DNA of 64,000 nt, from the NCBI RefSeq assembly GCF_013315695.1, contig NZ_CP054355.1. One strand, given 5' to 3'. The position numbers were made by a program, and so were the translations under genes. This stretch comes from Escherichia coli. GTDB lineage: Bacteria > Pseudomonadota > Gammaproteobacteria > Enterobacterales > Enterobacteriaceae. How positions within the stretch are numbered: the first letter of the stretch is position 1; every line of letters begins with the position of its first letter. The notes below the pieces were generated by a model. That model saw nothing but the letters and a program-made list of their open reading frames with translations, was not told the origin of the DNA and made no database searches. Below are positions 17,170 to 18,524 of the stretch, piece after piece.

Positions 17170-17588
17170 TCAATCGGTGGTTTATGTGACTATATTCGCA
17201 AAAACTGGTCGCAGAAAAGTCCTGTTTTCAGCTTGGAAACCCGGTAATCAGAATAATGGATAGGGGAACAAAAATCTCTGTATAGAACGCTCCATTGAGG
17301 GAGAGAAAACGTGTCATTTTGACCCGTTCGGTATTCAGAACACACAAAACCGATCGCGCATCGCTTTCGTGCATAGTTATGCAACGCGCTAAAAACGATT
17401 CTGACGCATTTTTCTGGTTCAGCCTGTGTTTCCTTGTCTTTTTGCGTTTTTTGCGTCAGAAAGCGACTGAGGGCGTTTTAAGGGGTACGTACAACGGGAG
17501 TTATGGTAAATGGATCGGTTTTTCGGGAAGGATCGACAGGATTTGCCGTTGGGTGTAGTGTAAGCGACTGAAAAACAAACGCCCCTGA

Positions 17589-18287
17589 AATCATGTCCAG
17601 ATCCGGCAGAACCAGCCTCATGCGCAGTTCTGGCTGGTTTTTGACGTTGATCGCGAGGGGGCAGCGATTGACTGGAGCGACCGGAACGCTCCCGCGCCGA
17701 ACATCACCGTAAAAAATCCTGTGAACGGTCATGCTCACCTGCTCTACGCGCTCAATATCGCCGTGAGAACCGCGCCGGACAGCTCGGTTAAGGCGCTGAA
17801 ATACGCCGCTGCGATTGAACGTTCGCTGTGTGAGAAACTTTGTGCTGATGTGAACTACAGCGGACTGATTTGTAAAAATCCGTTCCACCTGGAATGGCAG
17901 GTGATGGAGTGGCGAGAGGAAGCCTATACCCTCGATGAACTGGCTGATTATCTCGATTTGAGCGCCTCAGCGCGCCGTAGCATCGATAAACATTACGGGA
18001 TGGGGCGAAACTGCCACCTGTTCGAAATGACGCGCAAATGGGCTTACAGGGCGATTCGTCAGGGCTGGCCCGAATTCTCACAGTGGCTTGATGCCGTGAT
18101 TCAGCGTGTCGAAATGTACAACGCATCGCTTCCCGTTCCGCTTTCACCGCCTGAATGTCGGGCTATTGGCAAGAGCATTGCGAAATACACGCACAGGAAC
18201 TTCACGCCGGAAACTTTCGCACAGTATGTGGCTGATACGCACACATTAACGTACGTTTTCGTTCCATTGGCCCTCACCCCCCGATAA
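17589..18287 (+). pseudogene. ColE2-type plasmid replication initiator (Rep primase family), N-terminally truncated or frameshifted
   Basis: Frame open from 17589 without ATG; motif NPVNGHAHLLYAL parallels ColE2 Rep NPQSGHCHLLYAL; the ORF-track start at 17721 lies downstream of this conserved motif. Confidence 0.5.
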
Positions 18288-18524
18288 CGACCCAGGTAGC
18301 GCGCCGTATTCCCCCCGCCGGCCGTTTTCTTCGACATGTACATCAGGCGCGGAACTCATCGGGGCGCGGGAATGAAATCCCATTCAGACTCCGGATAGAT
18401 TCAAGCAAGCCCACTTATCGTCAAAATCGGTGTTGCAAAAACGGGAGTGACCATAGATCCGTTTTCCAAGCGGACCCATAATATCGGCTGGTAAACATCA
18501 CTCGCTAGTGCATTCTTTTTGTTG

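Follow-up and report, generated by a model that had tools for sequence, protein, structure and literature searches.

Why does a large virulence plasmid of extraintestinal Escherichia coli carry part of the replication gene of a small colicin plasmid, and can this part still act as a replicon? The question arises from the window, i.e., the whole 64-kb stretch of DNA analysed here, which belongs to a pUTI89/pUM146-like IncF virulence plasmid. An earlier note on this DNA had described a disrupted ColE2-type rep gene and had suggested that a small colicin-type plasmid, including the adjacent immunity cassette, was captured and then decayed. We suggest, with a probability of about 0.93, that positions 17258-18244 are an inert Col156-type replicon fragment that is fixed in the pUTI89-like IncF lineage. 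The disrupted rep gene is confirmed by our analysis and is of small-plasmid origin, but the immunity cassette has a different source.

Identity of the rep fragment

A functional ColE2-type plasmid encodes Rep, a plasmid-specific primase whose binding site is the 32-bp origin directly downstream of rep. Positions 17258-18244 hold about 1 kb of such a replicon, which belongs to the ColE2 family ("Col156" in PlasmidFinder) and consists of the rep leader and rep codons 42-254. The body of the pseudogene (codons 42-254; 17609..18244, plus strand) encodes the AEP-type primase/Replicase domain and PriCT_1 as well as the beginning of the origin-binding domain. As the earlier note had it, the Rep frame is open from 17589, just past the TGA at 17586-17588, and contains the conserved block NPVNGHAHLLYAL; it runs to a stop at 18285-18287. 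The Pfam matches are Replicase PF03090 (3e-40) and PriCT_1 PF08708 (7e-5); neither the remnant nor its neighbours matched NCBIfam. The combination of PF03090 and PF08708 is that described for ColE2-like initiators, which are typed as Col156 by PlasmidFinder and have their ori (32 bp) downstream of rep (PMC6856555). When an intact Col156-type Rep is compared with the window by tblastn, residues 40-254 align with 213 identities in 215 positions. A ColE2-P9-type Rep shares 174 of 215 residues with the remnant, and the two rep genes are 81% identical in nucleotide sequence. Thus, alignment makes the similarity to ColE2-family Reps clear.

The origin of the gene from a small plasmid is equally well founded, since the rep body is 98.1-99.2% identical at the nucleotide level to intact 5-6-kb Col156/MOBQ plasmids, with pSCU-106-7 at 98.1%. 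The closest intact rep found is that of pCUVET20-PYO2.2, which is 99.2% identical over 636 nt. The genes for a DNase-type E colicin, for immunity to it and for lysis are all on this 6,072-bp plasmid. Because the closest rep is on a DNase-colicin plasmid, the ancestry of the fragment in a ColE2-type colicin plasmid is well supported.

The ColE2-P9, ColE9-J and "Col156" small theta-replicating plasmids (MOBQ4-2 group) have the same leader and Rep family as the remnant. Compared with the ColE2-P9/Col156 plasmids, however, the remnant lacks, on the upstream side, the predicted RNAI promoter, the ribosome-binding site and the first 41 codons with the start, and on the downstream side all of rep from codon 255 on, together with the 32-bp origin. 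It sits in an F plasmid of about 100 kb, whereas those replicons are plasmids of 4-8 kb. Two other cases of displaced ColE2-type DNA can be set beside it. In pfloR (NZ_CP047011.1), like in the window, ColE2-type replicon DNA lies inside an IncF plasmid, but pfloR keeps the whole Col156 plasmid, with its origin, mob genes, full-length rep and genes for E-type immunity and lysis, whereas the window has only about 1 kb, without function. A chromosomal RepA-like gene of Erwinia tasmaniensis, which has an unrelated C-terminus, was judged to be probably non-functional (PMC2831885). This gene and the remnant are both ColE2-type rep sequences outside their own plasmid that have lost the native C-terminal end; they differ in that the E. 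tasmaniensis copy is chromosomal and keeps its N-terminus, whereas the remnant is on a plasmid and has lost both ends.

Breakpoints and the missing origin

The upstream part of the fragment (17258..17608, plus strand) is the 5' leader of rep; in the intact plasmids compared, its counterpart precedes the rep ATG and does not code for protein. When the window is aligned to pSCU-106-7 and pfloR, an internal-deletion junction, GGCA/GAACC, is located at 17606..17609, with the break between 17608 and 17609 and a 3-nt microhomology (GCA). The deletion of 185 bp extends from -60 to +125 relative to the ATG (pSCU-106-7 coordinates 723-907) and took the last 60 nt of the leader, where the ribosome-binding site lies, together with the ATG, codons 1-41 and two further bases. 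Thus, about 41 codons were lost, and not the roughly 100 N-terminal residues proposed earlier. The same junction is found in five other F plasmids and in pCUVET20-PYO2.1.

As a consequence of this lesion, rep has no complete translatable ORF, compared with 297-343 aa in intact relatives. The claim that the Rep frame has no usable start codon holds, since the frame offers no canonical start before the GTG at 17721, which lies inside the conserved block and has no Shine-Dalgarno sequence. The ORF at 17295-17558 had been read as an overlapping frame that may hold displaced N-terminal codons. It is in the same frame as rep (17589-17295 = 294), corresponds to non-coding leader in all intact plasmids compared and has no Pfam match; it is therefore neither. 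No trace of Rep residues 1-39 or of residues 255 onward was found in any frame of the whole 64-kb window, nor was any other Rep-like sequence. The absence of another Rep-like segment excludes a full-length Rep restored by a frameshift, which the earlier note had named as the finding that would overturn its view.

The leader is not without potential signals. It keeps a promoter-like site, TCGACA (17533-17538) and TAGTGT (17556-17561) separated by a 17-nt spacer. This site gave the best plus-strand promoter score, and the window shares it with all six intact plasmids that were scored. The ORF at 17295-17558 ends in a TAG inside the -10 element of this site. Since the site is retained, a transcript could still be made. 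Consensus promoter and terminator scans of the window and of one intact plasmid returned nothing useful in the leader.

The 185-bp deletion also bears on copy control. The leader of ColE2-type plasmids contains the gene of an antisense RNA, RNAI, which is the IncA determinant. In these plasmids, RNAI binds the 5' UTR and controls the translation of Rep (PMC6856555). The RNAI promoter and terminator discussed here are predictions, made from position-weight-matrix scores and folding, and not mapped RNA ends. The best minus-strand promoter, TTGAAG-16-TACGAT, is the same in the six intact plasmids scored, including the ColE2-P9-type plasmid with 81% rep identity; its -35 element lies within rep codons 5-6, and the predicted start is near -17. 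No other strong promoter on this strand is fully conserved. When the minus strand is folded from this predicted start, one long hairpin followed by UUUGUUUUU is obtained in 11 of 11 intact plasmids, and the inner stem of the hairpin varies between plasmid types yet stays paired. For the ColE2-P9-type plasmid the predicted RNAI is about 114 nt, in agreement with the length of about 115 nt that Takechi et al. reportedly gave in 1994. The predicted promoter falls wholly within the deletion, together with the 5' arm of the hairpin and part of its loop, and no promoter scoring above 4.1 is left on the minus strand. What is left of the predicted RNAI gene is its 3' remainder (17571..17608, minus strand), in which the 3' arm of the hairpin and the U-run terminator (AAAAACAAA on the plus strand, 17571-17579) are still present. 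The RNAI promoter and the 5' half of RNAI have thus probably been lost from the remnant. Other searches for RNA structure were less informative. An Rfam scan of 15500-19000 at E<=1 gave no match, though the library apparently holds no ColE2 RNAI family. The single-sequence fold of the window minus strand was no better than that of shuffled sequences (z = -0.38), and RNAalifold, run on MAFFT alignments of the leader, returned structures that were weak and out of register; the per-sequence folds from the predicted start were clearer.

At the other end, the match to all small plasmids listed breaks off at 18244 (codon 254). Beyond this codon the frame runs through 14 unrelated codons, in a Tn3-type terminal inverted repeat (IR), to the stop. 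Since the DNA-binding domain of ColE2 Rep spans residues 174-294 (PDB 3VW4) and rep is cut at 254, the C-terminal part of the origin-binding domain is missing. In intact plasmids the ori core TATCAGATAACAGCGCC follows directly after rep. The earlier note had pointed to the sequence immediately downstream of the gene as the place to look for the cognate ori; the core is absent there and from the whole window. One match with three mismatches occurs at 37135, 19 kb away, and shuffled sequences reproduce such a match in 15 of 100 trials, so we attribute it to chance. The 3' truncation at codon 254 (18244) and the absence of the origin had not been described in that note.

The element at the 3' breakpoint is a 38-bp Tn3-family IR (18245..18282, minus strand; reverse complement GGGGGGTGAGGGCCAATGGAACGAAAACGTACGTTAAT). 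Its inner end abuts rep codon 254, and its outer GGGG end faces 18283 and cjrA. Read directly from the sequence, the outer GGGG and the inner ACGTTAA are as in the ends of about 38 bp of the Tn3 family. Sequences of 37-38 nt that are 80-95% identical to it occur in more than 4,000 plasmids, with the match ending at 18246 and 18282/3, and in Yersinia pYV the same element overlaps the 3' end of a Tn3-family tnpA. Because no partner IR or transposase adjoins it, it is a solo relic.

All three parts of the replicon are inactivated. The microhomology-flanked deletion of 185 bp has taken the start of rep with its ribosome-binding site and codons 1-41, as well as the RNAI promoter and the 5' half of RNAI as predicted here. 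The rep gene stops at codon 254, at its fusion to the inner end of the solo Tn3-family IR, and has lost the C-terminal part of the origin-binding domain; the origin is gone as well. The fragment does not replicate and is not expected to exert ColE2-type incompatibility. We regard it as a trace that earlier recombination or transposition of mobile elements has left; the order and mechanism of the events that joined its pieces are inferred. Strain CUVET20-PYO2 has the F plasmid with the remnant and the intact Col156 plasmid pCUVET20-PYO2.2 in the same assembly, and this coexistence fits the loss of both incompatibility determinants from the remnant.

Two observations count against an inert fragment. 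One is the promoter-like site at 17533-17561. The other is that the rep body is nearly undecayed, with three synonymous changes initially scored as unique to the remnant in 212 codons; the non-synonymous change A197E was also first scored as unique but is shared with pCUVET20-PYO2.2. This near-lack of decay fits a recent single capture, though it is not by itself proof of neutrality.

Other readings of the locus

The remnant could have a use that does not depend on Rep. It might serve as a homology patch for exchange or cointegration of Col156 colicin plasmids with the F plasmid, or its leader transcript might titrate RNAI. The pattern of variation speaks for such a role. Variation among six F-plasmid copies falls almost entirely in about 175 bp of the leader (17359-17532; 19 sites), whereas the 636-bp rep body is invariant in these copies except for one 19-bp deletion. 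The leader alleles of the F plasmids are shared with different small Col156 plasmids, and alternative alleles are common to various small plasmids, which suggests that the variation may have come from gene conversion by resident Col156 plasmids. Whole Col156 plasmids are also found joined to F-plasmid sequence, inside pfloR and in NZ_CP030334.1 (strain AR_451), where the junction is in the leader. In this record of 7,588 bp, pUTI89-type sequence of 2.3 kb (window 15145 to about 17470) is followed by a complete Col156 plasmid of 5.17 kb. However, the record is linear and may be a chimeric assembly; either this or a genuine F::Col156 recombinant would account for it. Moreover, recombination between homologous sequences is expected by default and implies no selection, and the detailed comparison covers six F-plasmid copies only. 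For titration, the promoter-like site at 17533-17561 is kept, but only about 40 nt of the predicted RNAI target are left. We therefore consider a function of either kind unlikely. The related proposal that the leader recombines repeatedly with co-resident Col156 colicin plasmids, by gene conversion and occasional cointegration, is likewise unlikely in our view. If it were true, non-conjugative colicin plasmids would ride on the F plasmid, and the leader region that governs ColE2-type copy control would be shuffled.

It is very unlikely, we believe, that a small colicin plasmid was captured entire, as one unit with the neighbouring immunity cassette, and then decayed. In its favour, Col156 plasmids carry their colicin-immunity-lysis cargo directly upstream of the rep leader, and the left limit of homology at about 17258 is where small plasmids diverge, so that 16192-17257 could be lost donor cargo. 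Entire Col156 plasmids do integrate into F plasmids, as in pfloR. However, the immunity gene (15815..16150, plus strand; Pfam PF03526, annotated as colicin Ia/E1-family immunity) is an orphan gene for colicin Ia immunity. The block to which it belongs (14507-16191) consists of two hypothetical genes, a DUF6404 gene and the immunity gene, has no colicin gene, and is syntenic with the IncI/K conjugative plasmid pWI1 at 92-97% identity. Homology to colicin Ia plasmids ends at 16191. From there to the rep leader, an AT-rich block of 1.07 kb (16192-17257; 29-32% GC) is found only in pUTI89-type plasmids, and DNA and protein searches found it in no genuine small plasmid of PLSDB. Nor does the locus have any mob, cer, E-colicin, E-immunity or lysis sequence.

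The only small record that holds the immunity cassette and the AT-rich block is again NZ_CP030334.1. Up to about 17470 it hardly differs from the common pUTI89-type sequence, and it has a second leader copy at its end. As a candidate for the ancestral small plasmid it was rejected, since within the leader its match to the window falls abruptly, from about 100% identity to about 95%, and since two leader copies are present, as in a recombinant or chimera. Given the IncI/K synteny of the Ia immunity block and a separator found only in pUTI89-type plasmids, the cassette and the rep fragment are of separate origins. Thus, of the idea that a small colicin plasmid was captured and then decayed, what stands is a decayed rep of the type found on DNase-colicin plasmids; the immunity cassette does not belong to it, and only about 1 kb of small-plasmid DNA is present.

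The AT-rich block contains a degenerate direct repeat with a spacing of 310 bp, which carries two paralogous small membrane-like ORFs with 54% identity. They encode 58 aa (16659-16835, minus strand) and 68 aa (16963-17169, minus strand) and match no family. Homologues of the two ORFs were found nowhere else; for the 68-aa ORF, a search of 5.8 billion proteins returned only the pUTI89-type copies. Both ORFs sit between the orphan colicin immunity gene and the colicin Js/Z receptor operon, and from this position an immunity-like role is conceivable.

That a truncated Rep is made with primase or other activity, e.g., the 188 aa from GTG 17721, is hardly credible: the frame is open and retains the GHAH block and PriCT_1, but no Shine-Dalgarno sequence precedes the GTG, the product would be without the upstream FDVD acidic motif, the C-terminal third of the origin-binding domain is gone, there is no origin to act on, and the 19-bp deletion destroys the frame in a successful sublineage.

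Distribution, annotation and the cjrABC-senB flank

We return to the inert fragment, which is widespread and keeps the same limits. It is present in 437 of 5,426 complete E. coli genomes (window 15300-18700 as the query, coverage of at least 80%), with identical breakpoints in every copy checked, and 483 plasmids in PLSDB have the region 17200-18600 (coverage of at least 80%). Over 15300-18700, the window is 100% identical to NZ_OZ547118.1. Loci of the pUTI89, pUM146, pSE15 and pEC14_114 type have the same structure and breakpoints as the window, at 97.4-100% identity, and differ only in their leader alleles and in the 19-bp deletion of one sublineage. The window itself holds a minority leader allele among these loci. 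The 19-bp deletion (window 17987-18005) shifts the frame, occurs in pEc55_1 and pCUVET20-PYO2.1, and is a further decay of the remnant.

The remnant is already known, already annotated and ordinary. PGAP labels the locus a pseudogene, which appears in RefSeq as "replication initiation protein, incomplete" and in one copy as "frameshifted, missing N- and C-terminus". Its chief value is as a caution in annotation and plasmid typing. For example, a closed 114-kb pUTI89-like plasmid was typed as IncFIB/IncFII/Col156 (PMC7272548). Since the leader and the 5' region of rep match only one place in each F-plasmid record, this Col156 call must stem from the dead fragment. The remnant is the only Col156-related DNA found on pUTI89-like plasmids, and typing tools can miscount it as a live "Col156" replicon. 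Thus, a Col156 call on such a plasmid should not be taken to mean that it has a second functional replicon or that a separate small plasmid is present besides.

The locus also records how the left flank of the cjrABC-senB block differs between pUTI89-type plasmids and the pINV plasmids of Shigella and enteroinvasive E. coli (EIEC). Downstream of the remnant are cjrA, cjrB, cjrC and senB, of which cjrABC encode a ChaN-family lipoprotein, a TonB-like protein and a TonB-dependent receptor; cjrABC and senB are marker genes of the pUTI89-type plasmid group (PMC11748317). The window shares 18283-24156 with the cjrABC-senB block of pINV at 99.4% identity, and this homology begins exactly at 18283, at the outer end of the IR. 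The rep remnant is absent from the cjrABC locus of Shigella/EIEC pINV. The first shared segment is a 58-bp remainder of an IS91-family (Y2) transposase gene (18283..18340, minus strand), which is cut by the IR; in pINV it is longer and uninterrupted, and continues leftwards as a 164-aa ORF that matches Pfam Y2_Tnp (4e-27). It is followed by the last ~135 bp of an IS4321/IS5075-like element of the IS110 family (18341..18476, plus strand), identified by alignment to the 3' ends of annotated IS4321 and IS5075. This relic is common to pINV and lies about 135 bp upstream of cjrA. Since pINV has no rep remnant, the remnant would have come to this place within, or along with, a Tn3-family element that landed in the IS91 relic left of cjrABC.

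Several further relics surround the block. The fusion of the IS91-family fragment to the IS4321/IS5075-like end is seen in the window at 18283-18476 and in record L009 at 3359-3853, and a further IS91-like end follows senB (24397-24752). With IS91-type relics on both flanks, the cjrABC-senB block may at one time have been mobile together with elements of the IS91 type. A second, nearly canonical Tn3-type IR is present at 24226-24263 and is identical to that at 18245-18282 at 29 of 38 positions (hand count). Neither IR is present at the corresponding places in Shigella/EIEC pINV. We rejected the possibility that cjrABC-senB is a cointegrate bounded on each side by a copy of one Tn3-family transposon, since 9 of the 38 IR positions differ between the two and the flanks are inconsistent with such a structure. 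The two differing solo 38-bp IRs bracket cjrABC-senB, with their outer ends facing the block.
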